32,000 nucleotides of DNA from Flavobacteriaceae bacterium. Lineage in GTDB: Bacteria; Bacteroidota; Bacteroidia; Flavobacteriales; Flavobacteriaceae. Location: the NCBI GenBank assembly GCA_965224465.1, contig OZ245049.1, positions 4,800,001 to 4,832,000 of the forward strand. Direction: 5' to 3'. The notes under the pieces were generated by a model. It saw only the letters and a list, made by a program, of their open reading frames with translations, was not told the DNA's origin and ran no database searches. This document shows, one piece after another, positions 11,897 to 29,893 of the stretch. Numbering within the stretch: the stretch's first letter is position 1; every line of letters begins with the position of its first letter. Made by a program: the position numbers and the translations under genes.

Positions 11897-12058
11897 ATAT
11901 CAATTACAATCCAAAATGACCAATATAATATAGTTTATTTTACGATCTAGCGTTGTTGAAAAACAGAATGATAGCTAAGGCAATTCTTCCATTTTTTGTC
12001 TAGTTAAAACAAAAAATAATTCCATTTCTAAACCGTCACTTGGGAATCTATTTGGTAT
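11897..12058 (-). repeat. Full-length copy of the intergenic TIR repeat (reverse orientation, GCTAGAT subfamily)
   Basis: The reverse complement reads ATACCAAATAGATTCCCAAGTGACGGTTTAGAAATGGAATTATTTTTTGTTTTAACTAG ... CAACAACGCTAGATCGTAAAAT ... GTCATTTTGGATTGTAATTGAT. It lies in the divergent queE / DUF853 intergenic region. Confidence 0.85.
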
Positions 12059-12137
12059 AACTGACATTTGGCAGGAATATTTGCGCAAACAATTTTAATA
12101 TGTGTGATTTAAGTGTATTTTTATAAAAATTTTTAGA

Positions 12138-13652
12138 ATGGGTAACAGAGAAGACTTTTTTAAACATATTACAGAGGGCTATCAAACCAAAGGTGAATTT
12201 ATTACGATGGGAGCTGCCATGTTGGATGGAGAAACGATCACCGATGCTTTTGTGAAAATCCCGTTAAAAACATTAAATCGTCATGGTTTAATAGCGGGAG
12301 CAACGGGAACAGGTAAAACAAAAACCTTACAGGTGATGGCAGAGAATTTGTCTGAAAAAGGAGTTCCTGTGTTGTTGATGGATATAAAGGGAGACCTGAG
12401 TGGTTTGGCACAGGCAAGTCCAGGACATGCTAAAATTGATGAGCGCCATGCAGCTATTGGATTGCCGTTTGAGGCGAAGAAATTCCCTGTAGAAATCTTG
12501 ACTATTTCTGATCAAGAAGGGGTACGCTTGCGTGCTACTGTTTCTGAATTTGGGCCTGTTTTATTAGCTCGTATATTGGATTTATCAGATACGCAAAGTG
12601 GTATTGTCTCTGTGTTATTTAAGTACTGTGATGATCGGAAGTTACCCTTGTTAGATTTAGCAGATTTTAAAAAAGTACTCCAGTTTTCTACCAACGAAGG
12701 GAAAGAAGAGATCCAAGGAGAATACGGTAGAATTTCAACAGCAAGTACAGGTTCTATATTGCGAAAAATTATTGAGTTGGAGCAGCAGGGTGGTGATTTG
12801 TTTTTTGGAGAGCGTTCTTTTGAAGTGGATGATTTGACTCGGATAGACGAAGCAGGAAGAGGTGTTATTTCAATTTTGAGATTGACTGATATTCAGGACA
12901 GGCCAAAGTTGTTTTCTACTTTTATGTTGCAATTATTAGCAGAAATATATGCTACTTTTCCAGAACAAGGAGATAGTGAACGCCCAGAACTAGTCATATT
13001 TATAGACGAGGCGCATCTTATTTTTAAAGAAGCATCCAAGGCATTGATGTCACAAATAGAGAGTATTGTAAAATTGATTCGTTCAAAAGGTATTGGTTTG
13101 TTTTTTGTGACGCAGAATCCAAAGGATATTCCAGAAGATGTATTGGCTCAGTTGGGGTTAAAAATCCAGCATGCACTCCGTGCGTTTACAGCAAAAGACA
13201 GAAAAGCTATTAAATTGGTGTCAGAGAATTATCCAGATTCGGAATATTATAAGACCTCAGAATTACTAACGGAACTAGGGACAGGAGAGGCTTTAATTTC
13301 TGTATTAAACGAGAAAGGACGTCCAACACCGTTAGCGGCTACGATGTTAAGAGCACCGATGAGTAGAATGGATATTCTTACAAAAAAAGAGTTGAAACAA
13401 TTATTGGACAATTCAAGATTGGTTGAGAAATATAATAAGGAGGTGGATAGAGAGAGTGCCTATGAATTATTAAACGAGAAAATTGCGGCGATACATAAAG
13501 AAGAGGAGGCTGAAGAAAAAAAGAAAGAGAGCTCCAAAAGGTCTCGTACTACCAGAAGAAGAAGCACAAGAATGAATCCTATTTTAAAGGTCGTGACCAG
13601 TGCATCATTTATAAGAGGAGTCCTCGGAATTTTAAAAAGAGTAATGCGTTAA
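12138..13652 (+). CDS. DUF853-family HerA/FtsK-like P-loop ATPase (YjgR-like)
   Basis: 504 aa. Walker A GATGTGKTKT, Walker B VIFIDEAHLIF, and a basic C-terminal tail (RSRTTRRRSTR). Confidence 0.8.
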   Translation: MGNREDFFKHITEGYQTKGEFITMGAAMLDGETITDAFVKIPLKTLNRHGLIAGATGTGKTKTLQVMAENLSEKGVPVLLMDIKGDLSGLAQASPGHAKIDERHAAIGLPFEAKKFPVEILTISDQEGVRLRATVSEFGPVLLARILDLSDTQSGIVSVLFKYCDDRKLPLLDLADFKKVLQFSTNEGKEEIQGEYGRISTASTGSILRKIIELEQQGGDLFFGERSFEVDDLTRIDEAGRGVISILRLTDIQDRPKLFSTFMLQLLAEIYATFPEQGDSERPELVIFIDEAHLIFKEASKALMSQIESIVKLIRSKGIGLFFVTQNPKDIPEDVLAQLGLKIQHALRAFTAKDRKAIKLVSENYPDSEYYKTSELLTELGTGEALISVLNEKGRPTPLAATMLRAPMSRMDILTKKELKQLLDNSRLVEKYNKEVDRESAYELLNEKIAAIHKEEEAEEKKKESSKRSRTTRRRSTRMNPILKVVTSASFIRGVLGILKRVMR

Positions 13653-13725
13653 AAAAAACAGTGTTTATGTGTAAATATTATTGCACTTTTGACGTTAAAT
13701 AATTGAAACATTAATAAAATAACTT

Positions 13726-14301
13726 ATGTTTATATTTAAAAAATTAACCCCATTTATTATCTTATCCTTATTGTTTGTACAATGTAATGGTGATAAGGCT
13801 TTTGAAATTGAAAAGGGACGTGTAGGGAATATCCTCAAAGGAACTACAGTTCAAGAGTTAGAAGTAATTTTTAAATCAGATTCCTTAGTCAAAATTTTAA
13901 GTGAAGGAGATTTAGGAGGTCAAACTAGTAAATATTTAGTGGAAGATGATCAGTATTTTGTGTATTCTAAAATCGATAAAAAGAAATTATTAGAAATAGA
14001 ACCTGTAAATCAACACGATTCTATTTCTACAATAAAGAGTGTTCAGATTTTTGACCCTCGTTTTAAAACAGCGAATGGAATTGGATTGCATTCTACGTTT
14101 CAGGAAATTAATACCCACTGTAAAATTAACAAAGTAGAAACAACATTTACTTCTGTAATTTTGTTTATTGATGCCTTGAATGCAACTATTTCTATTGATA
14201 AATCAGAATTAGGGATTAAAGATTTTACTCTTCAAAAAGTGACGATAGATCAAATTCCAGATTTGGCTAAAGTAAAATATTTCACCATTTGGTTTGATTG
14301 A
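13726..14301 (+). CDS. Hypothetical secreted protein or lipoprotein
   Basis: 191 aa. Signal peptide with a lipobox-like LLFVQC. No recognisable family. Confidence 0.6.
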   Translation: MFIFKKLTPFIILSLLFVQCNGDKAFEIEKGRVGNILKGTTVQELEVIFKSDSLVKILSEGDLGGQTSKYLVEDDQYFVYSKIDKKKLLEIEPVNQHDSISTIKSVQIFDPRFKTANGIGLHSTFQEINTHCKINKVETTFTSVILFIDALNATISIDKSELGIKDFTLQKVTIDQIPDLAKVKYFTIWFD

Positions 14302-14324
14302 TGTCAAGAAGTGTTATCATATAA

Positions 14325-14366
14325 AAAATCCCATTTTGAATTTCAAAATGGGATTTTTTTATTTTG
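14325..14366 (+). terminator. Rho-independent (potentially bidirectional) terminator
   Basis: AAAATCCCATTTTGAA / TTCAAAATGGGATTTT form a perfect inverted repeat. An A-run precedes it and TTTTTATTTTG follows. Confidence 0.8.
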
Positions 14367-14418
14367 TTTAAAGTGATATTACAATCGCCATGCTCCTAAG
14401 AATGATGGTGTACTTGTA

Positions 14419-14576
14419 ATACCAAATACATTTCTAAGTGACGGTTAGCGAATGCAATTTATTTTTTTAGTTAGGCGAAATATCTAAGGATAGCCTTAGA
14501 TATCGTTCTGTTTTTCAACATCGACAGCACGTAAAACAAACTATTTATATCGATTATTTCGGATTGAAATTGGTAT
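14419..14576 (+). repeat. Full-length copy of the intergenic TIR repeat (forward, GACAGCACG subfamily)
   Basis: ATACCAAATACATTTCTAAGTGACGG ... central perfect 10 bp hairpin ATATCTAAGG-ATAG-CCTTAGATAT (14480-14503) ... CGACAGCACGTAAAAC ... TTTCGGATTGAAATTGGTAT. Confidence 0.85.
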
Positions 14577-14624
14577 AAATTATTTACTTTTTGCGCATTT
14601 TAAATTGAGGATCTCTTTCTCTAC

Positions 14625-15500
14625 TTAATCTCGACGTTCACAAGCTAGCAATGTGTTTTTAAGGAGCATTGCAATGGTCATTGGTCCAACACCACCTGGA
14701 ACTGGGGTGATAAACGAAGATTTCTTACTTACACTCTCAAAGTGTACATCTCCCGCCAGTCGATAGCCTCTTTTTTTACTTGGATCATCTACGCGTGTGA
14801 TTCCTACATCAATAATGGTGACACCATCTTTTACCATGTCTCCTGTTAAAAATTCTGGAATCCCTAAAGCGGCAACGATAATATCTGCTTGCAAGCACAA
14901 TTCTTTTAAATTCTTGGTTCTGCTATGGGCAACGGTTACAGTTGCATTTCCTGCAGGGCGTTTTTGGCTCATTAAAATACTCATAGGGCGTCCTACAATA
15001 TGGCTACGTCCAATAACTACTACATGTTTTCCAGCTGTTTCTACCTTGTATCGTTCTAGTAGTTCTAAAATTCCAAAAGGAGTTGCAGGTAAAAAGCAAG
15101 GTAAATCCAAAGCCATTTTCCCTACATTTGTTGGATGAAATCCGTCAACATCTTTATCGGGATTTACGGCCATTAATACTTTTTGTTCGTCTATGTGTTT
15201 AGGTAATGGAAGTTGTACTATAAAACCATCAATATCAGGATTGTTGTTCAGCCCTTCAATTTTTTCTAACAAAGTAGCTTCAGATGTACTTGCAGGCATG
15301 TCTAATAAAGAGGAGTTGAAGCCAACATATTCACAGGCTTTTACTTTACTGTTTACATAGGTCATACTTGCGCCATCAGTTCCTACTAAAATAGCTGCTA
15401 AATGTGGTGTTTTTTTACCCGCGGTTCTTCGCAAGTCTACACGTGCTTTAATTTCTTCTTTTAAATCGTTCGAGGTTTTTTTGCCGTCAAGTAATGTCAT
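14625..15500 (-). CDS. folD: Bifunctional 5,10-methylenetetrahydrofolate dehydrogenase/cyclohydrolase
   Basis: 291 aa. Motifs: [48 protein letters not shown]. Confidence 0.95.
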
Positions 15501-15519
15501 TTGTTAGTTTGTAAAGTTA

Positions 15520-16848
15520 CTATTTCATGTTTTTCATCATCTGCATCATCTTGCGGCCTCCTCCGCCTTGCATCATTTTCATCATTTTACTCATTTGATT
15601 GAATTGCTTCATCAATTGATTTACTTCTTGAACAGATGTTCCAGAACCTTTGGCTATACGTTTTTTACGAATTGCATTAATGGTAGTTGGAGTGCTGCGT
15701 TCATCAGGAGTCATAGAATGGATAATGGCTTCAATTCCTTTAAAGGCATCGTCGTCAATATCTACATCTTTCATGGCTTTTCCAGCACCGGGAATCATTC
15801 CAATCAAATCTTTCATGTTACCCATTTTTTTGATCTGTTGGATTTGCTGTAAGAAATCGTCAAAACCAAATTGGTTTTTGGCAATTTTCTTTTGAATTTT
15901 TCGGGCTTCTTCTTCATCGTATTGTTCTTGGGCACGTTCCACTAATGAAACAACATCTCCCATTCCCAAAATACGATCTGCCATACGATCTGGATGGAAT
16001 ACATCAATAGCTTCCATTTTTTCTCCAGTACCAATAAATTTGATAGGTTTGTTTACAACCGTTTTAATGGTCAATGCAGCACCACCGCGAGTATCCCCGT
16101 CAAGTTTTGTTAGCACAACACCGTCAAAGTTAAGGATATCATTAAAGGCTTTTGCAGTATTCACAGCATCTTGCCCTGTCATAGAATCTACTACAAATAA
16201 GGTTTCTTGTGGTTGTACAGCCTTGTGGATATTTGAAATTTCCGTCATCATTGCTTCGTCCACAGCCAAACGACCCGCGGTATCAATAATTACGGCATTA
16301 AATCCATTTGCTTTCGCATGTTTGATAGCATTTATAGAAATTTGAACAGGATTTTTATTATCCTCTTCAGCATATACTTCTACTCCTATCTGCTCTCCAA
16401 CAACACGTAGTTGCTTGATGGCGGCTGGACGATAGACATCACATCCTACTAATAATACGTTTTTAGATTTTTTTGTTTTTAAGTAATTGGCGAGTTTTCC
16501 AGAAAATGTAGTCTTACCAGACCCTTGTAATCCCGACATTAAGATGACGGTAGGGTTTCCTCCTAGGTTGATGCCAACAGTCTCCCCTCCCATTAAATCG
16601 GTCAGTTCGTCTTTTACCAATTTCACCATCAACTGTCCAGGGTTTAACGTGGTTAAAACGTTTTGTCCTAGTGCTTTGTCTTTTAATCTGCTGGTAAAAT
16701 CTTTTGCAATTTTAAAGTTAACATCGGCATCCAATAGCGCTCTACGCACTTCTTTCAATGTTTCAGCTACATTAACTTCTGTAATTTTTCCGTGCCCTTT
16801 TAATACATGTAAGGCTTTATCTAACTTATCACTTAAATTATTAAACAT
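15520..16848 (-). CDS. ffh: Signal recognition particle protein
   Basis: 442 aa. Motifs GLQGSGKTT, DTAGR and TKLDGD, plus a Met-rich C-terminal M domain. Confidence 0.95.
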   Translation of the reverse strand: MFNNLSDKLDKALHVLKGHGKITEVNVAETLKEVRRALLDADVNFKIAKDFTSRLKDKALGQNVLTTLNPGQLMVKLVKDELTDLMGGETVGINLGGNPTVILMSGLQGSGKTTFSGKLANYLKTKKSKNVLLVGCDVYRPAAIKQLRVVGEQIGVEVYAEEDNKNPVQISINAIKHAKANGFNAVIIDTAGRLAVDEAMMTEISNIHKAVQPQETLFVVDSMTGQDAVNTAKAFNDILNFDGVVLTKLDGDTRGGAALTIKTVVNKPIKFIGTGEKMEAIDVFHPDRMADRILGMGDVVSLVERAQEQYDEEEARKIQKKIAKNQFGFDDFLQQIQQIKKMGNMKDLIGMIPGAGKAMKDVDIDDDAFKGIEAIIHSMTPDERSTPTTINAIRKKRIAKGSGTSVQEVNQLMKQFNQMSKMMKMMQGGGGRKMMQMMKNMK

Positions 16849-17153
16849 AAAATCTCGCTTCGTTTTTATAGAACTGCAAAGATACTAAATTGCATCTAAA
16901 ATTGTGAGTTCATTTTTAGAAAAACATGCTTTATTTTTTGAATTTCAACTTGTTAAATAGATCGGATTGGTTTTTTGGAATAGAAAGGGGTTTCCAAGTA
17001 GAATTTTGAGTCGTTTTTCTATTATAAACAAGTTGTGCTATAGGATATGAATACTAAGATACGTGTCTGTTGTTCGCCTCTAGAACGGTATGTTTTTCTG
17101 TGCGTATGATTAGGTCCCCCTTTTCTGGTGATAAATTATCAATAATAGAAAAT

Positions 17154-17312
17154 ATCACCAAGTAAAATCTAAAATGACGGATATTAATAGTTTGTCTTAC
17201 GTGCTGTCGTTGTTGAAATACAGAACGATAGCTAAGGTTATCTACTCAATTTTTGCCTGGCTAAAAAAAATAATTCCATTTCTAAATGGTGACTTGGAAA
17301 TGTATTTGGTAT
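17154..17312 (-). repeat. Full-length copy of the intergenic TIR repeat (reverse orientation, GACAGCACG subfamily)
   Basis: The reverse complement reads ATACCAAATACATTTCCAAGTCACCATTTAGAAATGGAATTATTTTTTTTAGCCAGGC ... CAACAACGACAGCACGTAAGAC ... CGTCATTTTAGATTTTACTTGGTGAT. Confidence 0.85.
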
Positions 17313-17333
17313 AACTCTCGGGAGGTTTCTAGT

Positions 17334-17410
17334 AAAAAAAAATCACCCTAAATATGAACATTAAATAATTTGTTGAAAATGAAACTAATTCAATTTAGTA
17401 TTTAGGGTGA
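17334..17410 (-). terminator. Long-loop terminator downstream of msrB (minus strand)
   Basis: Perfect 12 bp inverted repeat TCACCCTAAATA (17343-17354) / TATTTAGGGTGA (17399-17410) separated by 44 nt. On the minus strand a run of 9 T follows the stem. Confidence 0.55.
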
Positions 17411-17512
17411 CCTATGTTTTGTAAGACTATTTTTTTTCTTTCTAATAGAGGGATTATTGGTGTCCCAAGACTATTATTTTGATTGATACACTATAAATAA
17501 TGTATTTTGAAG

Positions 17513-18001
17513 CTATTCTTTTGGTTGTATTTCTTTTTTAAATTGGATGGAAGAGGTGTTTACACAATACCTTTTTCCTGTTGTTTCCTTTGGACCATCA
17601 TCAAAAATATGTCCGAGATGACTCTTGCACGCTGCGCAAATTATTTCGGTTCTAATCATTCCATGTGCTTCATCTTTAACGTAGTGTACCGTTCCTTCAA
17701 TGGCATCGTCAAAGGAAGGCCAACCACAGTGAGATTCAAATTTGCTGTTAGACTTAAAAAGTTGAGCATCACAAGCATTGCAGTGGTATGTTCCTTTTTT
17801 GAAATGACGGGTGTACCCATCTTGACTTGGTTTATCTGTTCCTTTTTCTCTTAAAACATAGTATTCTTGTGCACTCAATTCGGCTTTCCATTCTGAGTCT
17901 GATTTTATGATTTTTTTCGGCATTTTTTTTGTGTTAATTTTCTGAGCTGATAATTGAAGTGTAAACAATATAAGGATACAGAAAGTTGCTATTTTAATCA
18001 T
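17513..18001 (-). CDS. msrB: Peptide-methionine (R)-S-oxide reductase with N-terminal signal peptide
   Basis: 162 aa. Signal peptide MIKIATFCILILFTLQLSAQ. Two CxxC pairs (CNACD, CAACK) and GWPSF / RYCVNS MsrB motifs. Confidence 0.9.
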   Translation of the reverse strand: MIKIATFCILILFTLQLSAQKINTKKMPKKIIKSDSEWKAELSAQEYYVLREKGTDKPSQDGYTRHFKKGTYHCNACDAQLFKSNSKFESHCGWPSFDDAIEGTVHYVKDEAHGMIRTEIICAACKSHLGHIFDDGPKETTGKRYCVNTSSIQFKKEIQPKE

Positions 18002-18004
18002 GGG

Positions 18005-18871
18005 TTATTTGCTTAAAAACTCGAGTATTTTAGCAATTACTTTTTCGTCTTTTAAAATACGTCGATGTCCTAGGTTTTGAGTGATTATAAGTTCACTATC
18101 TCTTAAGTTTTGTCGTATGTTTTTAGAAGAACTTACAGGGACATCCATATCATTTTCATCGTGGAAGAGTAAGGTGGGTATGGAGACCTCTTTTGCTGCG
18201 ATATTAGCGGAGTAGTTTTCGATGTCAAAATTTAAAATATCAAAGAAAATACGTTTCATTCTTGTGCCTATAACGGGTTTTAATTTCATTTTTTCAATAA
18301 ACATATGAATGATATCGTTAATGCTATCTCCAGAGCCTAAAATTACTAATTTTTTTATAGAGAAGCCTTCTTTTACGGCGGTTAGTAAAGCCATAGCTCC
18401 AAGGGAATGTCCGATAGATGCCTCAAAGGGACCAAAATCTTTTTCTAATTGATGTATACAATCAACAAACTCTGGCATCATGGTAGATTTTGTGGGTGAT
18501 TTTCCATGGGCAGGTGCATCAAAACTAATGGTCATATAACCTTTTTTTAATAAAGCATCGGCAATAGAAACCAATTGTGTGCCTCGGCCAGACCAGCCAT
18601 GAACAAGCAATATTTTTTTGTCCGATTGACCATAACTATAGGTGCGTATTTTTTTATCAAGCGAATTGATATGAATTGTTTGTTGCTTAGATTGCCTGTC
18701 CATATCGAGTTCGTGTTTTGGAGTTTTAAACTTAATAGGAGTTTTAAAGAGGTATACGGCAAATTTAGTAGCAAGTGTAGGAGAGATAAATTGGAGAAAC
18801 TTGGCAATAAATAAAATTGGTTTTGGAACGCTATTTGCGTTGGTATATTTTGTAATTTTGTTGGTTGACAT
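18005..18871 (-). CDS. Alpha/beta-fold hydrolase
   Basis: 288 aa. HGWSGRG oxyanion region, nucleophile elbow GHSLGA, and C-terminal GHRR. It ends 3 nt before the msrB start. Confidence 0.75.
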   Translation of the reverse strand: MSTNKITKYTNANSVPKPILFIAKFLQFISPTLATKFAVYLFKTPIKFKTPKHELDMDRQSKQQTIHINSLDKKIRTYSYGQSDKKILLVHGWSGRGTQLVSIADALLKKGYMTISFDAPAHGKSPTKSTMMPEFVDCIHQLEKDFGPFEASIGHSLGAMALLTAVKEGFSIKKLVILGSGDSINDIIHMFIEKMKLKPVIGTRMKRIFFDILNFDIENYSANIAAKEVSIPTLLFHDENDMDVPVSSSKNIRQNLRDSELIITQNLGHRRILKDEKVIAKILEFLSK

Positions 18872-19002
18872 CTATGTTGTTATTTTTGGTGGTAAATATA
18901 GAATTTGTACATTGAAAAAAAAACATAAAATTGAGAAGTTGTACGTTTTAAGCGAATTTATTTTGTGCTTATTACGGAATAGAAATTTTAAAAAAGAAAG
19001 TT

Positions 19003-19821
19003 ATGAAAAAAATGATATCCTTATGCCTAGTTGCATTGATGATGGTGAGTTGTAGTACAGTGCCTATTACGGGAAGAAAGAGAATCAATGTTGTAAAGGA
19101 TTCTCAAATATTACCTTCCAGTTTTGCCCAATATCAAGGGTTTTTAAAAGAGAATAAGTTGTCTACGGATGTTTCTAAGTCCGCAGAAATAAAAAATGTA
19201 GGAAAAAAAATATCCAAAGCAGTGGATCGTTTTATGCGAGCAAATAATATGAGTTCGGAAGCAAATAATTACCGATGGGAGTTTAATTTGATAGAAAACG
19301 ATGCGATTAATGCATGGTGTATGCCTGGAGGAAAAGTTGTTTTTTATACAGGAATTTTACCGATGTGTGCTAATACTGATGGTATTGCAGCAGTAATGGG
19401 ACATGAAGTTGCGCATGCTTTTGCAAAACATGGACAAGAACGTATGACTACGGCGTATGGACAACAGGTTGGTGGTTTGGCAGTGATGCTTGCAACGGGA
19501 GGTAAAGACCCTAAAAAAGCACAAATGTGGAATACGATATACGGAGTTGGATCTCAGTTGGGGATGTTGGCTTACAGTCGTACACATGAAAACGAGGCTG
19601 ATAAATTAGGAATGGTATTTATGGTAATGGCTGGGTACCAACCAGAAGAAGCAGTAAATGTTTGGATTCGAATGAGTAAGAGAGCAGGAGCAGGCAAAGC
19701 ACCTCCAGAGTTTATGAGTACGCATCCTTCTAATCAAACACGAATTAAAAATTTAAGGGCTTATTTGCCTACAGCTACTGCTTTGGCAAAGAAGTACAAT
19801 GCACAAATGTTACGAAATTAA
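19003..19821 (+). CDS. M48-family zinc metallopeptidase lipoprotein
   Basis: 272 aa. Lipobox MMVSC, HEVAHA zinc motif and downstream ENEADKLG. Confidence 0.85.
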   Translation: MKKMISLCLVALMMVSCSTVPITGRKRINVVKDSQILPSSFAQYQGFLKENKLSTDVSKSAEIKNVGKKISKAVDRFMRANNMSSEANNYRWEFNLIENDAINAWCMPGGKVVFYTGILPMCANTDGIAAVMGHEVAHAFAKHGQERMTTAYGQQVGGLAVMLATGGKDPKKAQMWNTIYGVGSQLGMLAYSRTHENEADKLGMVFMVMAGYQPEEAVNVWIRMSKRAGAGKAPPEFMSTHPSNQTRIKNLRAYLPTATALAKKYNAQMLRN

Positions 19822-19880
19822 ACAGTATTTTGTTTTATAAAAAAATGAATAGTTCTTATTAAAACAAAAATAGTATATTG

Positions 19881-19910
19881 AGCCGTCCAAAAATGGGCGG
19901 CTCTAATATT
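19881..19910 (+). terminator. Probable terminator after the M48 peptidase gene
   Basis: Stem AGCCGTCC / GGGCGGCT (8 bp with one G-U), loop AAAAAT, then CTAATATTTT. It overlaps the first codons of the listed 19878 ORF, which argues for a later start of that gene. Confidence 0.45.
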
Positions 19911-19916
19911 TTATAT

Positions 19917-21221: not shown

Positions 21222-21228
21222 TATTTCA

Positions 21229-22119
21229 GTGAAGATTATTAACACATATAGTATTTCACCTACAGAAGTAGGAATGCGTTTTTGTACATTTTGTGAAGAA
21301 TTTGTACAGGAGTTTCCTTCTAAAAGTAGTGTTAAAAAAGCAATTTTAAAAGGGAAATTAAGATTGAATGGCAGTTTTGCAAAAGGAGCTATTTGGATGA
21401 AAATAGGTGATATAGTATCTGTAGTAGACTTGGAACTTACCCCTCCTAAACTCTTTAAATTACAATTAGAGGTATTGTTTGAGGATGATGTAATGGCTGT
21501 TGTGAATAAACCTGCGGGAGTTACTGTAAGTGGAAATCAATTTAAAACAATCCTAAATTGTTTGCCGTTTAATTTAGCCTCATCATCAGAAATGGATGCT
21601 CTTCCTTGGCCGTTACCCGTGCATAGGTTGGATAATATGACAAGTGGTTTGCTTGTGATAGCTAAGACAAGAAAGGCACGTGTGGTATTGGGACACTTGT
21701 TTGAAGAAAAAAAAATGATGAAAACCTACCACGCTTTGGTGATGGGGAAGTTAGAAGGAACGGGAGTGATGAACGATCTTATTGAAGGGAAAAAAGCGGA
21801 AACATTCTATAAAAGTATTGCTGTACTTCCTTCTTTGAAAAATAATTTTTTAAGTTTGATTCAGTTAACTCCTAAAACGGGGCGTACGCATCAAATAAGA
21901 ATTCACTTGGCCAATCTTGGACTGCCTATTCTTGGTGATTCTTTGTATGCAGAAAAAACATTATTGCACAAAGGATTGTTTTTGGTGGCTACAAAAATTT
22001 GCTTTCCACATCCACTTACAAATCAAAAAATGTGTGTTGAAATTGCCCTTCCTTCAAAGTTTGAAAATCGCATGAAGAATGAAAAATCACGATGGAAACG
22101 CTTCCATACGCAGAATTAA
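21229..22119 (+). CDS. RluA-family pseudouridine synthase
   Basis: 296 aa. Catalytic motif HRLDNMTSGLLVIAK and TGRTHQIRIHL. The GTG start is uncertain. Confidence 0.85.
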   Translation: MKIINTYSISPTEVGMRFCTFCEEFVQEFPSKSSVKKAILKGKLRLNGSFAKGAIWMKIGDIVSVVDLELTPPKLFKLQLEVLFEDDVMAVVNKPAGVTVSGNQFKTILNCLPFNLASSSEMDALPWPLPVHRLDNMTSGLLVIAKTRKARVVLGHLFEEKKMMKTYHALVMGKLEGTGVMNDLIEGKKAETFYKSIAVLPSLKNNFLSLIQLTPKTGRTHQIRIHLANLGLPILGDSLYAEKTLLHKGLFLVATKICFPHPLTNQKMCVEIALPSKFENRMKNEKSRWKRFHTQN

Positions 22120-22765
22120 AGAATTTTGGCAGGTTTAGGAGCTGTCTAAAATGTAATTTTGTAGTGAATTTTCGCTTTTTTTTTTGCTCCGTGCTTCTTT
22201 TTTTGCGCGAATTAGCTTTTTTTTTTCTTGTTTATGCCCTGAAATAATTAAATTTATAAGTGATAAAAGTTACTTAAAACCACAGTACTATTGCGTTTTA
22301 GGAGTTGTTTTTGTGTCTTTTTTTAAGGTGTTTTAAATGTGTTTATTTTTCTTTTATAGGCGTTTGTTTTCTTGTTGTTTAATGATTGATTTTTTATTGA
22401 TTTATCAGTAAAAACACATATTTGTGAAGTTTTTTGCAGGATTCGTACTTGTTAGCTGTGTAAATTGATATTTAATGAATTGAAAGAGTGTTTTTCTTAT
22501 ACTTAATATATCTTTCTAGGGAAGTGTAAACATGATAAATGTCGTGTTTTTTGGGTGTTCTAATAGTATATTTGAGTAGTGATAGAATTGAAATAAGATC
22601 ATTAAAAAATCAACAATTAAAATGATGAATGTACCATTAGTTACATTCTATTAAAACAGAAAAATTACAGTTTAATTTTTATGAAATGAGCCGAAAATCA
22701 AATCTCCGTGAGGAATCAAATTTGGAAGTTTTGTAGATAAAACAAAAAGCAATAACAATTATAAT

Positions 22766-24322
22766 ATGAACGTAGCAGAAAAAATAGCTTTATTAAAAAG
22801 CAAGCGAGAACAAGTGCTTGAACTAGGAGGTGAAGCACGCGTTGAAAAGCAACACAAAAAAGGTAAACTTACCGCAAGAGAACGTATTAATTTATTGTTT
22901 GACGAAGGTAGTTTTCATGAAATAGATGCTTTTGTGAAACACAGATCTACTAATTTCGGAATGGCAAATGTAGTGATCGAATCTGACGGTGTTATCGTTG
23001 GGTATGGGATGATCAATGGAAGACCTGTTTTTGCTTATTCTCAAGATTTTACTTCAAGAGGAGGATCGTTAGGAGAAAAGCATGCAGCTAAGATTTGTAA
23101 AATCATGGATTTGGCTGTAAAAGCTGGGATGCCAGTTGTTGGATTGAATGATTCTGGAGGAGCACGTGTAGAAGAAGGAGTGGATGCATTACAAGGATAT
23201 GGAGATATTTTCTTCCGTAATTCTAGAGCATCAGGAGTTATTCCTCAAATTTCTGCGATCATGGGCCCTTGTGCTGGTGGTGCGGTGTATTCACCTGCAA
23301 TGACTGATTTTATCTTTATGGTAAAAAAGACCAGTCACATGTTTATTACCAGTCCTTATGTTATTAAAACAGTTACTGGTGAAGAAACTACTTTTGAAGA
23401 ATTAGGAGGTGCAATGGCACACAATTCAACAAGTGGTAATGCACATTTTGCTTGTGAAAACGATGAAGATACGATTGAGCAAATTAGAGAATTGTTAGAA
23501 TACATGCCAAACAACAATATGGAAAGTGTTCCTGCTGTTGAAATGGATGATGAGCCAGACAGAGTTTGTGAAAAATTAGATACAATTATTCCAGACGATG
23601 CAAAAAGACCTTATGATATGAAAGAGATCATTGAAGAGGTATTGGATGAAGGAGAATTTTTTGAAATACACCGTTATTTTGCAGAAAACTGTATCATAGG
23701 ATATGGTCGTTTAAATAATCAAACAGTAGGTATTATTGCAAATCAACCAATGATTTCTGCAGGGTGTTTGGATATCGATGCTTCAGATAAAATAAGTCGT
23801 TTTATCAGAACATGTGATGCATTTAATATTCCTTTAGTAACATTTGTAGATGTACCAGGGTATTTACCAGGAGTAGATCAAGAATTAGGAGGGATTATCC
23901 GCCACGGTGCAAAATTATTATGGAGTTATGCAGAGGCTACAGTACCTAAATTAACAGTTATTGTTCGTAAGGATTACGGAGGTGCTTATTTAGCGATGAG
24001 TTCTAAACAACTTGGTGCTGATATGGTATACGCTTGGCCAACTGCTGAAATTGCAGTGATGGGAGCTAAAGGAGCTGTAGAAGTAATTTCTAGTTACAGA
24101 AAAGAAATTAGTGAAGCAGATGATAAATTAGCTAAGATTAAAGAAAAAATTGATGAATACGAAACTGCATTCAGTGTACCATACATTGCAGCAGAAAGAG
24201 GGTATGTGGATGAAGTAATTCTTCCAAGTGAAACAAGAGAACGTTTGATCTCTGCCTTAACAGTATTAGCATCTAAAACAGAAATATTACCAGCAAAAAA
24301 ACACGGAAATATTCCTCATTAA
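22766..24322 (+). CDS. Acyl-CoA carboxyltransferase (methylmalonyl-CoA carboxyltransferase 12S / propionyl-CoA carboxylase beta-like)
   Basis: 518 aa. Motifs: GKLTARERI, GGSLGEKHAAKI, NDSGGARVEEGVDAL, MGPCAGGAVYSPA, ANQP, GGAYLAM. Confidence 0.9.
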   Translation: MNVAEKIALLKSKREQVLELGGEARVEKQHKKGKLTARERINLLFDEGSFHEIDAFVKHRSTNFGMANVVIESDGVIVGYGMINGRPVFAYSQDFTSRGGSLGEKHAAKICKIMDLAVKAGMPVVGLNDSGGARVEEGVDALQGYGDIFFRNSRASGVIPQISAIMGPCAGGAVYSPAMTDFIFMVKKTSHMFITSPYVIKTVTGEETTFEELGGAMAHNSTSGNAHFACENDEDTIEQIRELLEYMPNNNMESVPAVEMDDEPDRVCEKLDTIIPDDAKRPYDMKEIIEEVLDEGEFFEIHRYFAENCIIGYGRLNNQTVGIIANQPMISAGCLDIDASDKISRFIRTCDAFNIPLVTFVDVPGYLPGVDQELGGIIRHGAKLLWSYAEATVPKLTVIVRKDYGGAYLAMSSKQLGADMVYAWPTAEIAVMGAKGAVEVISSYRKEISEADDKLAKIKEKIDEYETAFSVPYIAAERGYVDEVILPSETRERLISALTVLASKTEILPAKKHGNIPH

Positions 24323-24333
24323 AACTAAAAGTT

Positions 24334-24519
24334 ATGGATTTATTAGCAAAAAAGAAACGTGCAGCCGCCATTGCCGTTAGTTGTTACATTCAACAAATGG
24401 ATGAAGAAGTACAGCCAACCAATGAGAAAGCCTGGAGAAATGCAGGAATTCAACGAATTATGCTTGGAAAAGAAGTGTTATTCAGAAGAGGAAGACTCGT
24501 AGGGCAAAAGAATTTATAA
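24334..24519 (+). CDS. Small (61 aa) basic protein of unknown function within the carboxylase operon
   Basis: Tightly spaced between the two large subunit genes (11 nt and 24 nt gaps). There is no clear TM helix, so it is not a typical OadG-type anchor. Confidence 0.45.
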   Translation: MDLLAKKKRAAAIAVSCYIQQMDEEVQPTNEKAWRNAGIQRIMLGKEVLFRRGRLVGQKNL

Positions 24520-24543
24520 TCAACAATACAATAACAAATTATC

Positions 24544-26436
24544 ATGATATACGATAAACACGGGTCATTAGTAATGACCGATACTAACTATAGCGTAGAC
24601 CGACCAAAAGCAGCAAACCCAATCAAAATTCAAGATTTAAGTTTCCGTGATGGTCACCAATCATTGTTTGCAACCAGAGGTAGAACAGAGGATATGCTTC
24701 CTATTGCTGAACAAATGGACGAAGTAGGATTTCACGCTATCGAAACGTGGGGTGGAGCTACTTTTGATACGATGCACCGTTACTTGGGTGAAGATCCATG
24801 GGAGCGTTTAAGAGTATTAAAAAAATACATGCCTAAAACTCCTTTCTTTATGTTGTTACGTGGTCAAAACGTAGTGGGGTATAGAAATTACGCAGATGAT
24901 GTGGTTGAAAATTTTGTACAACGTGCCTGTGATAATGGTGTTGACATTTTTAGATGTTTTGATGCATTGAACGATTACCGTAACTTTGAAACTGCGGCTA
25001 AAATTGTAAAACAAAACAAAATGCACTTCCAAGGGACTATCTGTTATACCTTAACAGAACCTAGAATGGGTGGTGACGTTTATAATTTAGATTATTATAT
25101 CAACAAAGCAAAAGAATTAATTGATTTTGGAGTAGACTCTATCTGTATCAAAGATATGGCTGGTTTAATTGCCCCTTATGATATTTATAACTTGGTTGTT
25201 GAATTGAAAAAAATTACAGATATTCCTTTAAACTTGCACACGCATTTTACTTCTGGAATGGGAGATTTAGCAATTTTCAAAGCAATTGAAGCTGGTATTG
25301 ATATCGTAGATACTTGTATGTCTCCGTATGCATACCGTACTTCTCATGCTGCTATTGAGCCTCTTGTAATTTCTTTATTAGGAACCAATCGTGATACTGG
25401 ATTTGATATCAAACAATTATCAAACATCAGTAATCAAATGGAAAAAATTATTCCTAAGTACAAGCACTTAGCAAACAATCCTAAATATGCTATTATTGAT
25501 ACAGATGTAATTTTACATCAAACTCCAGGGGGAATGTTATCTAACTTGGTGAATCAATTAAAACAAATGGACGCATTAGACCGTTTGGATGATGTATTTA
25601 AAATGTTGCCTAAAGTTCGTAAAGATCTAGGGACAATTCCATTGGTAACTCCAACAAGTCAAATTGTAGGTGTACAAACGGTAAATAATGTATTGTTTGA
25701 TTCTTATGAAGGTGAGTATTCAAAAATTACGCAAGAGGTAAAAGATCTTTGTTATGGGTTGTATGGTAAAACTACCTTGCCTATCAACGAGGAATTACGT
25801 AAAAAAGCATTGAAAGGATATCCAAGAGGTGAGCAACATATTACCTGTCGTCCAGGAAGTGTGTTAGAACCAGAAATGGATGCTGTAAGAGAAAAGTTTA
25901 AAGATCTTGCAAAAGATGCGGATGACGAAGTATTGTTAGCATTATATCCTATTACTGGAAAACGTTTCTTAAAAATCAAATACGGTTTAGAAGAAATGCC
26001 AGCAGATATGAAAGCAAAAACGTTGGAAGATGTAGCCAAAGAAGAAGCTTTAATTGAGAAAGCGTTGTCTGGTGAATTGACAGCTGCTAAATCTGGAGCT
26101 AAAGGAATGGTAGAAATGGAAGTAATTGTTGATGGTGAAACATTCAATGTTTCTATTCCTAGCAATAAAGCTACAGGACGTACCAAACGTAAGAAAAGAG
26201 AAGTAGTTGAAGAAGCAGGAGCGGAAGGAGCAACAGTTTCTCCAATCCCAGGAATGATTATAGAATACAATGTAAAAAACGGTGATACTGTAAAAGTTGG
26301 AGACGTTGTAGTTGTAGTGGAAGCTATGAAAATGATGAACAACTTTGAAGCGACTAAGGACGGAGTAGTTTCTGGAATTAAGTACGAATCAGGTGACGCG
26401 GTTAAAAAAAACGATGTGTTATTTGTTATTGAATAA
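24544..26436 (+). CDS. Pyruvate/oxaloacetate carboxyltransferase (5S / OadA-like) fused to a C-terminal biotin carboxyl-carrier domain
   Basis: 630 aa. TIM-barrel motifs DLSFRDGHQS and HTHFTSGMG. An Ala/Glu-rich linker is followed by the biotinylation motif EAMKMMN. The start could alternatively be the in-frame ATG 30 nt downstream. Confidence 0.9.
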   Translation: MIYDKHGSLVMTDTNYSVDRPKAANPIKIQDLSFRDGHQSLFATRGRTEDMLPIAEQMDEVGFHAIETWGGATFDTMHRYLGEDPWERLRVLKKYMPKTPFFMLLRGQNVVGYRNYADDVVENFVQRACDNGVDIFRCFDALNDYRNFETAAKIVKQNKMHFQGTICYTLTEPRMGGDVYNLDYYINKAKELIDFGVDSICIKDMAGLIAPYDIYNLVVELKKITDIPLNLHTHFTSGMGDLAIFKAIEAGIDIVDTCMSPYAYRTSHAAIEPLVISLLGTNRDTGFDIKQLSNISNQMEKIIPKYKHLANNPKYAIIDTDVILHQTPGGMLSNLVNQLKQMDALDRLDDVFKMLPKVRKDLGTIPLVTPTSQIVGVQTVNNVLFDSYEGEYSKITQEVKDLCYGLYGKTTLPINEELRKKALKGYPRGEQHITCRPGSVLEPEMDAVREKFKDLAKDADDEVLLALYPITGKRFLKIKYGLEEMPADMKAKTLEDVAKEEALIEKALSGELTAAKSGAKGMVEMEVIVDGETFNVSIPSNKATGRTKRKKREVVEEAGAEGATVSPIPGMIIEYNVKNGDTVKVGDVVVVVEAMKMMNNFEATKDGVVSGIKYESGDAVKKNDVLFVIE

Positions 26437-26454
26437 TAAATTGTAGTTTTTTTT

Positions 26455-26489
26455 AAAAAGGCTTGAACGTTTTGTTCAAGCCTTTTTTT
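26455..26489 (+). terminator. Rho-independent terminator of the carboxylase operon
   Basis: AAAAAGGCTTGAAC / GTTCAAGCCTTTTT stem with a 5 nt loop and a T-run. Confidence 0.85.
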
Positions 26490-26619
26490 ATGTCTTTTTT
26501 TTTGATGCAACCAATCCTCTTTTACGTTTAGTTACATTCAGTTTTTAACAAAACTTATTAACATTATTTATAAAACAGTAGTTTGTGTTTTTAGTCCAAA
26601 TTATTCTGAAAGTACTTTT

Positions 26620-26783
26620 ATACCAATTAAATTCCAAGTAAAGGTTTAGAAATGGAATTATTTGTTGTTTTAGCTAGGCGGAAAACCTAAGGATAGGTTT
26701 AGTTAGCCATGGTTCTATTCTTTAACAACGACAGCACGTAAAGTAGCCTATTTATATCGGTTATTTTGGATTGTAATTGGTAT
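26620..26783 (+). repeat. Full-length copy of the intergenic TIR repeat (forward, GACAGCACG subfamily)
   Basis: ATACCAATTAAATTCCAAGTAAAGGTTTAGAAATGGAATTATTTGTTGTTTTAGCTAGGCGGAAAA ... AACAACGACAGCACGTAAAG ... GTTATTTTGGATTGTAATTGGTAT. Confidence 0.85.
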
Positions 26784-26889
26784 CATTCTTCCCGTTAAAA
26801 AAAAGCTGTAAAGTTCTGGGTAAAGAAAACGTTTTAGTAACTGTTAATAATCACTTTGTACTTGGGTTTTATTAAACTGATGGTTTTAC

Positions 26890-26897
26890 TATTTTTG
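26890..26897 (+). promoter_or_regulatory. Candidate Bacteroidota -7 promoter box (TAnnTTTG)
   Basis: TATTTTTG matches the TAnnTTTG consensus exactly, 26 nt upstream of the ATG at 26923. No well-spaced -33 TTTG was seen, so the call is weak. Confidence 0.3.
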
Positions 26898-26922
26898 CAA
26901 TCAAATCAATCAACTATAACAC

Positions 26923-27579
26923 ATGAAAAAAATTAGTACACTAGTAGCTTTTATTGCTACAGTTGCAGTTACTGCACAGAACTTACAAATGCACTATGAT
27001 TTTGAACGGGAACAGATCACCACTACCTTAGAATTTTTCAAAATGGACTCGTATGGAAACACGTATACTTTTATTGATCTAGATTATAATGCCAAAGCAG
27101 GAATTAGTGGGGCTTATTTTGAAATAGCACGTGTGTTAAAAACAAAGAAAATGCCTGTTGGATTACATATTGAATACAACGGTGGTTTAGGAACTTTTGG
27201 TAATGCGCCAAATCAAGGGGGCTATACTATAAATGAAGCATGGATTTTGGGAGCCAATTATTCGAAAGGAAATGCTACTTGGGGGTTTTCTACCTATGCG
27301 GGATATAAAGCTTTTACAGGTATTGGAGGGGAAGGAAACTACCAAGTAACAGGAACATGGTATTATAATTTTGCGAAGAATTTTTCATTTTCTGGTTTTG
27401 CTGATGTTTGGAGTGAAAACGGATTGACAGACAAGACCGTGTTTTTGTCTGAGCCCCAATTATGGTATCACTTAAACAAAACGTTTTCTATAGGTGGAGA
27501 AGTAGAATTCTCTAATAATTTTGCACATGTTTTTGAATTTAAAGTGCGTCCAACTGTTGCAATTAAATGGAATTTATAA
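26923..27579 (+). CDS. Predicted outer-membrane beta-barrel protein (DUF5020 / Tsx-like nucleoside channel candidate)
   Basis: 218 aa. Signal peptide ending VTAQ. Alternating aromatic/Gly-rich strands (GAYFE, GLHIEYNGG, WGFSTYAGYK, VTGTWYYNF, FSGFADVW). It lies directly upstream of a purine permease. The family assignment is from memory. Confidence 0.55.
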   Translation: MKKISTLVAFIATVAVTAQNLQMHYDFEREQITTTLEFFKMDSYGNTYTFIDLDYNAKAGISGAYFEIARVLKTKKMPVGLHIEYNGGLGTFGNAPNQGGYTINEAWILGANYSKGNATWGFSTYAGYKAFTGIGGEGNYQVTGTWYYNFAKNFSFSGFADVWSENGLTDKTVFLSEPQLWYHLNKTFSIGGEVEFSNNFAHVFEFKVRPTVAIKWNL

Positions 27580-27590
27580 TCGTATAAGCT

Positions 27591-28895
27591 ATGAGTAAAT
27601 TAGATAAATATTTTAAAATAAAAGAAAGCGGTTCTACCATGAAAACCGAAATTATTGCAGGGATTACTACCTTTATGACTATGGTGTATATCCTAGCGGT
27701 AAATCCGGGAATCTTGGGAGAAACGGGGATGGATAAAGGAGCTGTATTTACAGCTACTGCCTTGTCTGCTGTAATTGCAACTTTAGTGATGGCATTGGTC
27801 GCAAAATTACCTTTTGCCTTGGCGCCAGGAATGGGTTTGAATGCGTTTTTTGCATTTACCGTAGTGTTAGGTATGGGCTATTCTTGGGAGTTTGCCTTGA
27901 CAGCAGTGTTTTTAGAAGGAATCGTTTTTATCCTTTTAACGGCTTTTAATATCCGTGAGTTAATTGTGAACTCCATTCCCTTAAATTTGAAACATGCGGT
28001 ATCTGTAGGTATTGGATTTTTTATTGCTTTTATTGGATTGAAAAACACAGGTCTTATTGTGGATAACCAAGCTACTTTAGTGAGTCTTGGGAATATGAAA
28101 AACCCTGCTGTTTTTGTAGGAATGGCTGGTGTTATTATAATAGGAGTATTGTTGGCTAAAAAGGTAAAAGGAGCTATACTGATTGGGATTTTAGCATCTA
28201 CTGTTATTGGTTTGTTTGTTGGAGTTACTGTAATTCCTGAAGGATTTACTTTTGTGAGTTTACCACCATCTATAGAACCTGTATTTTTTAAGTTTGACTT
28301 TTCTCAAGTATTTACTTTAGATATGCTAATTGTTTTATTCACGTTCTTATTTGTAGATATGTTTGATACGGTAGGGACACTTGTAGGAGTGGCTTCTAAA
28401 GCAGATATGTTGGACAAAGAAGGGCGTGTTCCTCGTGTAAAACAAGCCTTGTTTGCAGATTCTATTGGTACGTTCTTTGGCGCTATTTTGGGGACATCTA
28501 CGGTAACTACCTATGTAGAAAGTGCTGCGGGCGTAGCAGAAGGAGGAAAAACAGGAATGACGGCCTTAACGGTTGCCATTATGTTTGCTTTGTCCTTGTT
28601 TTTTGCACCAGTATTTATGATTGTTCCTGCGGCAGCAACAGCTCCTGCATTAATTATTGTGGGCCTGTTTATGATTACACCCATTAAGAAAATAGATTTG
28701 GAAGATTTTACAGAAGCGATTCCTGCATTCTTTACTATTGTAATGATGCCGTTGACATACAGTATTGCAGAAGGTATTGTTTTTGGGATGTTGTCTTTTG
28801 TGATCCTAAAATTGCTCACAGGGAGGTATAAAGAAATTAAGCCTATTATGTATTTAATCGCTGTGTTGTTTTTGGTGAAATTTTATATTGCTTAA
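27591..28895 (+). CDS. NCS2-family (AzgA-type) adenine/guanine/hypoxanthine permease
   Basis: 434 aa polytopic protein. The N-terminus STMKTEIIAGITTFMTMVYILAVNP and the segment TTYVESAAGVAEGGKTG are characteristic of AzgA/PbuG-type permeases. Confidence 0.85.
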   Translation: MSKLDKYFKIKESGSTMKTEIIAGITTFMTMVYILAVNPGILGETGMDKGAVFTATALSAVIATLVMALVAKLPFALAPGMGLNAFFAFTVVLGMGYSWEFALTAVFLEGIVFILLTAFNIRELIVNSIPLNLKHAVSVGIGFFIAFIGLKNTGLIVDNQATLVSLGNMKNPAVFVGMAGVIIIGVLLAKKVKGAILIGILASTVIGLFVGVTVIPEGFTFVSLPPSIEPVFFKFDFSQVFTLDMLIVLFTFLFVDMFDTVGTLVGVASKADMLDKEGRVPRVKQALFADSIGTFFGAILGTSTVTTYVESAAGVAEGGKTGMTALTVAIMFALSLFFAPVFMIVPAAATAPALIIVGLFMITPIKKIDLEDFTEAIPAFFTIVMMPLTYSIAEGIVFGMLSFVILKLLTGRYKEIKPIMYLIAVLFLVKFYIA

Positions 28896-28917
28896 CACAT
28901 GTTCATTTCGAAGATTG

Positions 28918-29020
28918 TTTAGGAAACAATTTCCAATCGATCTGAGTTCGGGTTGTTTTTTGTTTTATATTGACAAAAAAATAGATGGCTAGCCATAGCT
29001 GTTGTTCTATTTCTTAACCA
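28918..29020 (+). repeat. Degenerate, right-arm-less copy of the intergenic repeat
   Basis: AAACAATTTCCAATCGATC...GTTGTTTTTTGTTTTATATTGACAAAAAAATAGATGGCTAGCCATAGCTGTTGTTCTATTTCTTAAC aligns by eye with the left arm and centre of copy 29114-29284 (TTTTTTGTTTTAACTAGGCGGAAAATGGATGGATAGCCTCAGCTATCTTTCTGTTTTTTAAC). Confidence 0.5.
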
Positions 29021-29070
29021 TAGAAAAAGAAAAAAGACTTGACATTACTTGTCATTTTTATATATATTAA

Positions 29071-29106
29071 CAAAAGGGAGTTGCATTGAGATGCAACTCC
29101 CTTTTG
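29071..29106. terminator. Strong hairpin (possible terminator) between two repeat copies
   Basis: Perfect 16 bp stem CAAAAGGGAGTTGCAT / ATGCAACTCCCTTTTG with loop TGAG. Only a short TTGTTGTGT tail follows. Confidence 0.5.
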
Positions 29107-29113
29107 TTGTGTA

Positions 29114-29284
29114 ATACCAACTACATTTCCAAGTGACGGTTTAAAAATGGAATTATTTTTTGTTTTAACTAGGCGGAAAATGGATGGATAGCCTCAGCTA
29201 TCTTTCTGTTTTTTAACAACGCTAGATTGTAAAATCACCTATTAATAGCTTTCATTTTGGATTGTAATTGGTGTACAATCGTAT
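29114..29284 (+). repeat. Full-length copy of the intergenic TIR repeat (forward, GCTAGAT subfamily)
   Basis: ATACCAACTACATTTCCAAGTGACGGTTTAAAAATGGAATTATTTTTTGTTTTAACTAGGCGGAAAA ... AACAACGCTAGATTGTAAAAT ... TTCATTTTGGATTGTAATTGGTGT. Confidence 0.85.
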
Positions 29285-29886: not shown

Positions 29887-29893
29887 AATAGAT

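Follow-up and report, generated by a model that had tools for sequence, protein, structure and literature searches.

In this study, we found that a 32,000-nucleotide stretch of the genome of a Flavobacteriaceae bacterium (assembly GCA_965224465.1, contig OZ245049.1, positions 4,800,001 to 4,832,000; the whole stretch is called the window below) carries a dense family of intergenic repeats of about 160 bp. These repeats are very probably decaying copies of a miniature transposable element with inverted repeats (MITE) and without coding capacity, which was moved in trans by an IS630-family transposase encoded elsewhere. Small and non-coding, the repeats combine terminal inverted repeats, target-site duplications, filled and empty sites, copies in several species and ends in agreement with those of an autonomous insertion sequence (IS), and it is on these features that the reading as a MITE rests. 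The initial annotation of the window, made from the letters and a list of open reading frames (ORFs), had named three options for the repeat, and the MITE among them is supported. The other two, a REP-like (repetitive extragenic palindromic) element and a structured RNA, are not, considering the size, the ends and the duplication of the unit, its lack of covariation and the empty Rfam result. This MITE family of Flavobacteriaceae is apparently undescribed so far. Its end sequences occur in no open paper, and the earlier remark that it is not a named element holds as far as this can be checked. A paper on a Cardinium MITE does not describe the window element, and a large survey of Bacteroidota MITEs (bioRxiv 10.1101/2024.01.18.576219) holds no description of it, although its automated lists may hold the element unnamed.

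The copies were sought with a repeat finder, a MAFFT alignment and an nhmmer profile built from five full copies. These five, of 156-162 bp and in both orientations, gave nhmmer E-values of 1e-46 to 1e-51, which are a match by construction as the profile was made from the same five copies. Independent support for them comes from the repeat finder and from a control with a degenerate 30-nt element pattern, which had five matches in the window (G+C content of about 35%) and none in 100 dinucleotide-preserving shuffles. Repeat finder, MAFFT, nhmmer and shuffle control thus agree with the five full copies of the initial annotation. Its coordinates for them lie within 1-2 nt of the refined ends, except for the end at 29284, which overshoots the real end (29273) by 11 nt. 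The three partial copies that it had placed at 4829-4936, 10278-10343 and 28918-29020 were left out of the profile building and were all recovered by nhmmer (E = 1e-9, 2e-8 and 1e-5), so they are real, and they are of three different kinds. The total is eight to nine copies within the 32 kb: five full, two truncated and one or two decayed. As had been described, all of them lie between ORFs of the ORF list and occur in both orientations, and no ORF of at least 80 aa overlaps any copy.

The inverted termini that had been noticed from the start are about 23 bp long and have the form TACCAA(A/T)TAC...GTAATTGGTA. The left end (TACCAA(A/T)TACATTTCCAAGTGAC) and the right end (GTCATTTTGGATTGTAATTGGTA) are distinct, and the end motif TACCAAWTACAWTYCMAARTGAC is found on both sides; the window has 15 end-like matches compared with a mean of 2.1 in the shuffles. 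The alignment of ten copies with their flanks indicated that the element proper runs from TACCAA to TTGGTA and has T-W-A (TWA, where W is A or T) on each side, with the same middle base on both sides. It had been stated that there was no obvious target-site duplication. This was wrong, as a 3-bp direct TWA duplication flanks the element. A scan with the end pattern over all DNA gathered in the analysis gave 20 end pairs, and 12 of these have identical TAA/TAA or TTA/TTA flanks while none has the inverted pattern; all 12 informative MITE copies showed the direct match. The duplication is perfect in all ten listed end pairs outside the window. The one exception outside the window is the copy common to the loci L006 and L007, whose left triplet is TAC or TTA and whose right triplet is TCA. 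Two other explanations of the flanking triplet were rejected. A TA duplication with one extra element base does not fit, because the third base matches in every perfect pair, and because the TAA and TTA types are both found in the same element orientation. TWA as a part of the inverted repeat does not fit either, because no MITE pair has the inverted TTA...TAA pattern.

A comparison of presence and absence between strains had been suggested in the initial annotation, and the relatives provide it in the form of a precise filled/empty polymorphism. The syntenic stretches compared were those of GCA_016764435.1 (L006 and L008) and of NORP129 (L009), and L006 is 78-87% identical to the window in the compared stretch. 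In the spacer between queE and a herA-like gene, the window reads AAAGC-GAA-[160 bp]-TAA-CTGACATTTG, and the empty site reads AAAGC-TTA-CTGACATTTG in L009 and AAAGC-TAG-GTGACATTTG in L008. The gap in the alignment at this copy (11898-12057) is exactly 163 columns with near-identical flanks, which corresponds to the 160-bp element plus 3. This is the only copy for which the exact empty site is readable. For the copy at 26621-26782, the L006 homology restarts exactly at the right triplet, where L006 has TTA and the window TCA. The left flank of the copy at 29115-29273 is conserved up to the triplet in both L006 and L007, where the triplet is TTA, and the copy at 28920-29072 is an insertion of about 156 bp compared with the same position in these two loci. 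In the syntenic stretches of the relatives (L006, L008 and L009), nhmmer detected none of the eight clear window copies.

Some junctions are more complex. The relatives have a 152-aa ORF of unassigned function (L006 7982-9212) where the window spacer 26502-26821 holds the copy 26621-26782, and this spacer is remodelled and not simply filled. L006 16345-16484 (corresponding to L007 10597-10726) combines two left ends with a single right end. Ends also stand back to back on one shared TWA, such as ...TTGGTA-TAA-TACCAATC, at about 1111-1135 of L033 and about 1442-1470 of L037. It seems that insertion beside an existing end is favoured, or that ends recombine.

Local duplication had been kept in view by the initial annotation as the alternative to a dispersed family. 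When species-representative genomes were scanned with the internal pattern, the same subfamily came up at five loci in three other Flavobacteriaceae species, represented by the North Pond metagenome-assembled genomes (MAGs) NORP167, NORP129 and NORP150. The repeat (80-91% identity) is all that these loci have in common with the window, and their flanks are unrelated, which indicates that the repeat family did not arise by local duplication but is spread over several species. Identity to the nine-copy consensus is 83-91% for the window copies; their mean pairwise identity is 76.6%, and they resemble the NORP copies (82%) more than one another. Moreover, two subfamily blocks, GCTAGA.. and GACAGCACG, are found in the window and the NORP MAGs alike. 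The identity pattern and the common subfamily blocks show that these are old insertions, derived from already diverged source copies, and the window copies are probably no longer mobile.

The autonomous partner was found, at family level, through the ends. In the Joint Genome Institute (JGI) metagenomes, 19 loci matched a pattern that covers both ends, and the internal 30-nt pattern had zero matches. Two matches in viral contigs were discarded, as they represent the same chance match inside a phage gene, which was also seen as L016. Six of the loci (L014, L018, L020, L023, L026 and L028) are other MITE subfamilies of 84-160 bp with the same TACCAA... ends of about 23 bp and perfect TTA or TAA duplications. 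The cores of those metagenome MITEs are unrelated, and across the wider superfamily it is the ends that are conserved instead of the core. At the metagenome locus L010, an element end is followed 25 nt on by an ORF (orfA) with helix-turn-helix (HTH) domains, whose homologues are proteins of 161-170 aa on contigs of 1-2 kb. The homologous contigs carry a complete IS of 1112 bp, which consists of TACCAAATACATTTCCAAATGAC, orfA (164 aa, with matches to HTH_23/28/29/32/33), an A8 run, orfB (190 aa, Pfam DDE_3) and CGTAATTGGTA, and its right end overlaps the stop codon of orfB. On the left, MITE and IS have 22 of 23 bases in common, and on the right their ends can be aligned over 33-38 nt (about 28/33 identical). 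As both ends match, the MITE appears to derive from such an IS by internal deletion.

The joined protein of orfA and orfB scored 184.7 bits (cutoff 100, E = 2.6e-54) against the NCBIfam model NF033545, IS630 family transposase; this fusion query was joined by hand and about 12 residues at the junction are wrong, which should not change the family assignment. The A8 run (TTTAAAAAAAATACC) lies in the overlap of the two frames (L029 1270-1320) and orfB is in the +1 frame, which points to programmed frameshifting or transcriptional slippage at this run as the way in which the complete transposase is produced. There are 1737 relatives of orfB at E <= 1e-10, among them entries of Algibacter (Flavobacteriaceae) and of Prolixibacteraceae MAGs under the name 'IS630 family transposase'. 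Where the flanks of IS copies are well supported, they are TTA/TTA, namely in Algibacter (two assemblies), in Prolixibacteraceae (several assemblies), and in L051 and L031.

The nature of this partner bears on two other proposals for how the repeat is spread. The initial annotation had suggested a search for a REP-associated tyrosine transposase (RAYT), which is the wrong class, since the matching ends belong to an IS with an IS630-family DDE transposase. A REP is a palindrome of about 20-40 bp in which a 5' tetranucleotide is conserved and which makes no target-site duplication, and REPs are often clustered. The window repeats resemble REP palindromes or their mosaic arrangements (BIMEs) spread by a RAYT in that they are intergenic, dense, partly palindromic and in both orientations. 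However, each unit spans about 160 bp, its left end is distinct from its right end, a 3-bp duplication is present, the copies stand singly, and both ends match an IS630-family DDE element and not one with a Y1 transposase, so the probability of this origin is negligible.

Mobilisation of the MITE by a transposase of the IS5/PIF-Harbinger type instead of an IS630-family element deserves more attention, because of the triplet. Some IS5-group elements make 3-bp TWA duplications. A 3-bp TWA duplication is the hallmark of PIF/Harbinger elements. Elements of the IS630/Tc1/mariner group are described as duplicating TA and those of the Sailor superfamily as duplicating TATA (PMC8533490). On the other hand, the MITE ends match those of an IS630-family IS on the left and on the right as given above, and the IS copies that were retrieved by protein homology alone all have TACCAA...TTGGTA ends inside TWA. 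A Nostoc relative in finished plasmids, which is described below, has the same ends, a TAA duplication and an empty site, and no element of the IS5 type with TACCAAATAC... ends turned up. Taken together, these data make an IS5/PIF-type mobiliser very unlikely, though less so than a RAYT.

Several observations weigh against a MITE mobilised by an IS630-family enzyme. The 3-bp duplication is atypical compared with the TA described for IS630/Tc1/mariner elements (PMC8533490). The duplications of the window itself are weak, as only one of the five full copies has a perfect one and the other four are one base off; these imperfect duplications fit the age of the copies. By tblastn, no transposase was found in the window, as had been noted before, or in nine related Flavobacteriaceae loci. 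The partner is established at the family level only, from other Bacteroidota and from metagenome contigs whose hosts are unassigned. Finally, the two flanks are unlike in five short IS contigs (L029, L030, L033, L035 and L039), one being TTA and the other TAA. The right flank of L039 is common with L040 and its left flank is not, and we assume that such unlike flanks reflect chimeric assembly across a multicopy IS, or recombinants.

The two inverted ends could form a long hairpin, and it might be supposed that this hairpin is the functional feature of a structured non-coding or cis-regulatory RNA family. The region of one copy (29111-29276) folds far better than shuffled sequences (z = -5.1), each of the five full copies is co-oriented with at least one adjacent gene, and the central hairpin with its T-run is terminator-like in the sense orientation. 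However, for another copy neither strand gave a better fold than its shuffles (z = -0.9 and -0.4), so that two of the three single-copy folds are shuffle-like. In RNAalifold with nine copies, the covariation term was +1.9, where a positive value is unfavourable; compensatory changes were seen at 2 of 53 pairs and many pairs were broken. Positions at which the left and right ends mismatch are conserved as well, in keeping with recognition by a protein and not with base pairing. Rfam, the search of which had been proposed in the initial annotation, matched no family, either at the gathering threshold for the whole window or at an E-value threshold for the stretch around the copy 26621-26782; its best match was the CRISPR-DR model with E = 0.34, which is not meaningful. 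A scan of the window for tRNA and tmRNA genes found none. In addition, the neighbouring genes are functionally unrelated, and an RNA family leaves no place for the duplications or the precise empty site. An RNA function as the origin of the repeats is therefore extremely unlikely, and we return to the MITE.

The following course of events is proposed for it. The two ends of about 23 bp would be the binding sites of an IS630-family DDE transposase, which would be supplied in trans by an IS of about 1.1 kb with the same ends. This transposase would be made from two overlapping frames, orfA for HTH DNA binding and orfB for the DDE_3 catalytic domain, probably joined by a +1 shift at the A8 run. 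The enzyme would cut the element out and paste it into a TTA or TAA (TWA) site, where a 3-nt stagger would leave the 3-bp direct duplication. The surviving copies are confined to intergenic AT-rich DNA, often just beyond terminators. In this genome they spread later than the split from the nearest sequenced relatives, and they have decayed since, as seen in the divergence from the consensus (83-91% identity), the mutated duplications and the truncated copies.

The individual full copies show where such insertions have come to lie. The 160-bp copy at 11898-12057 (- strand) is supported by nhmmer (E = 4e-48), by the end scan and by the clean empty site in L009 and L008, and it is 90.6% identical to the consensus. 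On the + strand its flanks are a degenerate GAA (11895-11897) and TAA (12058-12060), and it stands between the divergent queE and herA-like genes. The 156-bp copy at 14420-14575 (+ strand, E = 9e-47) has the perfect TAA/TAA duplication (14417-14419 and 14576-14578) and lies between convergent genes, 60 nt beyond a terminator hairpin at 14323-14359. The other 156-bp copy, at 17156-17311 (- strand, E = 3e-46, end scan), has TAT and TAA as its + strand flanks, which is one mismatch, and is located between msrB and ffh, about 20 nt beyond the hairpin at 17334-17419. The 162-bp copy at 26621-26782 (+ strand) was identified by nhmmer (E = 4e-46), the end scan and the L006 alignment, and is flanked by TTA (26618-26620) and TCA (26783-26785). 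The 159-bp copy at 29115-29273 (+ strand), found by nhmmer (E = 9e-51) and by the alignment with L006 and L007, has TAA (29112-29114) and TAC (29274-29276) on its sides and is situated about 10 nt after the permease terminator and upstream of napD/napA.

The remaining copies, all on the + strand, are in different states of decay. The copy at 4831-4924 is internally deleted and consists of the segments 4831-4884 (nhmmer E = 1e-9) and 4891-4924 (E = 5e-3). It kept the left end (model positions 3-59) and the 3' segment (126-160), lost the last 6 nt or so and is preceded by TAA (4828-4830); the degenerate pattern also matches it, with 3 mismatches. At 10283-10343, there is a solo 3' half (model 105-166, E = 2e-8, also aligned to the consensus) with an intact right end ...TTTGGTA, which is followed by TTA (10344-10346). 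A decayed full-length copy with eroded ends lies at about 28920-29072, between the permease stop codon and the permease terminator, and was recognised by its nhmmer core (28953-29019, E = 1e-5) and by a global alignment to the consensus. A further copy at 5274-5435, starting with TATCAAACGTATTTATAAATGAC, is possible; it is very decayed and marginal (nhmmer E = 0.07, an end-like match with 5 mismatches, and the consensus alignment).

Strong terminator hairpins are found 10-130 nt before four of the five full copies (14323-14359, 17334-17419, 26455-26487 and about 29072-29100). It seems that insertion just downstream of terminators is tolerated or targeted. These settings raise the question of whether the copies, on top of their MITE origin, were co-opted as terminators, insulators or promoter modules, with their density kept by selection on the host. 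They have a conserved central hairpin (GGATAGCC-TTAGCTATC) followed by TTCTGTTTTT, and this hairpin scores as terminator-like in two copies, at 14480-14503 in the copy 14420-14575 and at 29186-29203 in the copy 29115-29273. The copy 11898-12057 also splits queE from its ancestral promoter region of 101 bp, so that transcription of queE must now start within the element or run through it. The queE ORF was listed at 11242-11889 (- strand), but its orthologues are 210 aa long and begin with MTEK..., so the real start is probably 11874, about 20 nt from the copy upstream of it. Nevertheless, a copy that lies downstream of a strong native terminator, as four of the five full ones do, adds nothing obvious. 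The copies are decaying, several are truncated or eroded and their mean pairwise identity is low, as described above, and the syntenic stretches of the relatives hold no detected copy. In addition, the promoter scan has no coverage of Bacteroidota promoters. We consider such a secondary role unlikely, although it is the least improbable of the alternatives discussed so far.

The surroundings of the repeats differ along the window. Positions 1-4708 hold a thiamine biosynthesis cluster (thiD, thiE, thiG, thiH and a thiF-like gene), which is syntenic with the relatives and has zero repeat copies. It is followed by a cassette of 5.4 kb (window 4709-10462) between thiF and cmk, two genes that are adjacent in both relatives at a distance of about 300-380 bp. 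The cassette encodes a PAAR protein (5581-6309), a VasX-N-like toxin of 1077 aa (6312-9545) and a 232-aa product without a Pfam match (9556-10254), which is probably an immunity protein. It is bracketed by two MITE remnants in the same orientation, the 3' segments of which (4891-4924 and 10304-10337) are 91% identical and have a 1-nt deletion in common. The idea that the PAAR/VasX cassette (4925-10282) is a composite transposon was rejected, because the outer flanks differ (TAA at 4828-4830 and TTA at 10344-10346); recombination at the MITE copies around the cassette is possible. At the other end of the window, a napD-like ORF (29611-29883) is followed from about 29894 by the start of the periplasmic nitrate reductase NapA, which runs off the window. 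This region after the last copy (29611-32000) is non-syntenic with L006 and L007.

The 3-bp duplication is also found beyond Bacteroidota. The nearest annotated relatives of the partner IS in finished plasmids are cyanobacterial IS630-family elements with about 32-34% identity. The IS of Nostoc flagelliforme pNFSY07 has the ends TACCAATT...AATTGGTA, and it has an exact empty site in pn2 of Nostoc sp. UHCC 0926 (CGC-TAA-[IS]-TAA-GTT compared with CGC-TAA-GTT). The rule given for the IS630 family, insertion at TA with TA duplicated, does not hold here: the target includes TA, yet TTA or TAA is duplicated. The empty sites of the window copy 11898-12057 and of the Nostoc IS fit only the element plus 3. 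It seems that TACCAAT termini and the 3-bp duplication are properties of a clade that spans two phyla. Zator, a group of eukaryotic elements, is said to make a 3-bp duplication as well (by Bao et al. in 2009). TP36, a bacterial relative of Zator, groups with IS630 (PMC7386202). We propose only tentatively that the TACCAAT-ended orfA/orfB relatives of IS630 may form a cross-phylum clade of Bacteroidota and Cyanobacteria, in which a 3-nt stagger would produce the TWA duplication and which might be a bacterial counterpart of the eukaryotic Zator. The MITE of the window would then be the first described non-autonomous derivative of this clade and would mark a large burst in one Flavobacteriaceae genome.

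These results account for a dense repeat that was otherwise puzzling in the genome of a Flavobacteriaceae bacterium of marine or subseafloor origin. The exact ends, the consensus and the TWA target rule allow the family to be masked and annotated in this genome and in its relatives. This is of practical use, as MITEs of such density break short-read assemblies, offer homology for rearrangements and can rewire promoters, as in the case of the copy 20 nt from queE. An IS630-family clade that duplicates three bases is also a small but concrete point on the variation of target cutting within IS630/Tc1/mariner.

Among the known systems, RUP of Streptococcus pneumoniae is a MITE derived from IS630-Spn1. 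It is listed as a MITE of 107 bp (PMC3184786). Like the window element, such IS630-derived MITEs are small, non-coding and intergenic, have inverted repeats like those of an IS630-family IS, are mobilised in trans, occur in many dispersed copies and can form a long hairpin. RUP and the canonical IS630/Tc1/mariner elements duplicate TA, whereas the window element duplicates TTA or TAA and has its own sequence, a Bacteroidota host and TACCAAT termini. The Correia elements (NEMIS) of Neisseria also duplicate TA and are not known to have an established autonomous partner. They are MITEs of about 104-157 bp (PMC3184786). They resemble the window element in size and density (about one per several kb), in their ends of about 25 bp and in their intergenic location, sometimes before genes, but the window element has a TWA duplication and a matching IS family was found for it. 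With the IS630 family at large, the partner IS shares its length of about 1.1 kb, an HTH-rich N-terminal part with DDE_3, short inverted repeats that overlap the stop codon and a target that contains TA. It differs in the TWA (3 bp) duplication, in the transposase split into orfA and orfB at the A8 run and in the low identity, noted above, to its nearest annotated relatives in finished plasmids. Zator and TP36 represent an IS630-related branch (PMC7386202, PMC8533490) and were compared with the clade of the window element by their description only.

Other MITEs share single traits with the window element. The PIF/Harbinger-Tourist MITEs, of which mPing has a TAA duplication (PMC6042816), show the same TTA/TAA duplication and a similar architecture, but they are eukaryotic and belong to an IS5-related transposase superfamily. 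Nezha, a MITE of Anabaena and Nostoc, measures 130-170 bp and has sites that are filled in one species and empty in a related one (PMC3184786). Nezha, which pairs with ISNpu3, was considered as the closest cyanobacterial analogue and rejected as a different system, because it has a 10-bp direct repeat (PMC6042816); a supposed link to IS630 was not borne out. Compared with these systems, the only departure of the window element from the textbook is the 3-bp TWA duplication instead of TA, and otherwise it is ordinary selfish DNA.

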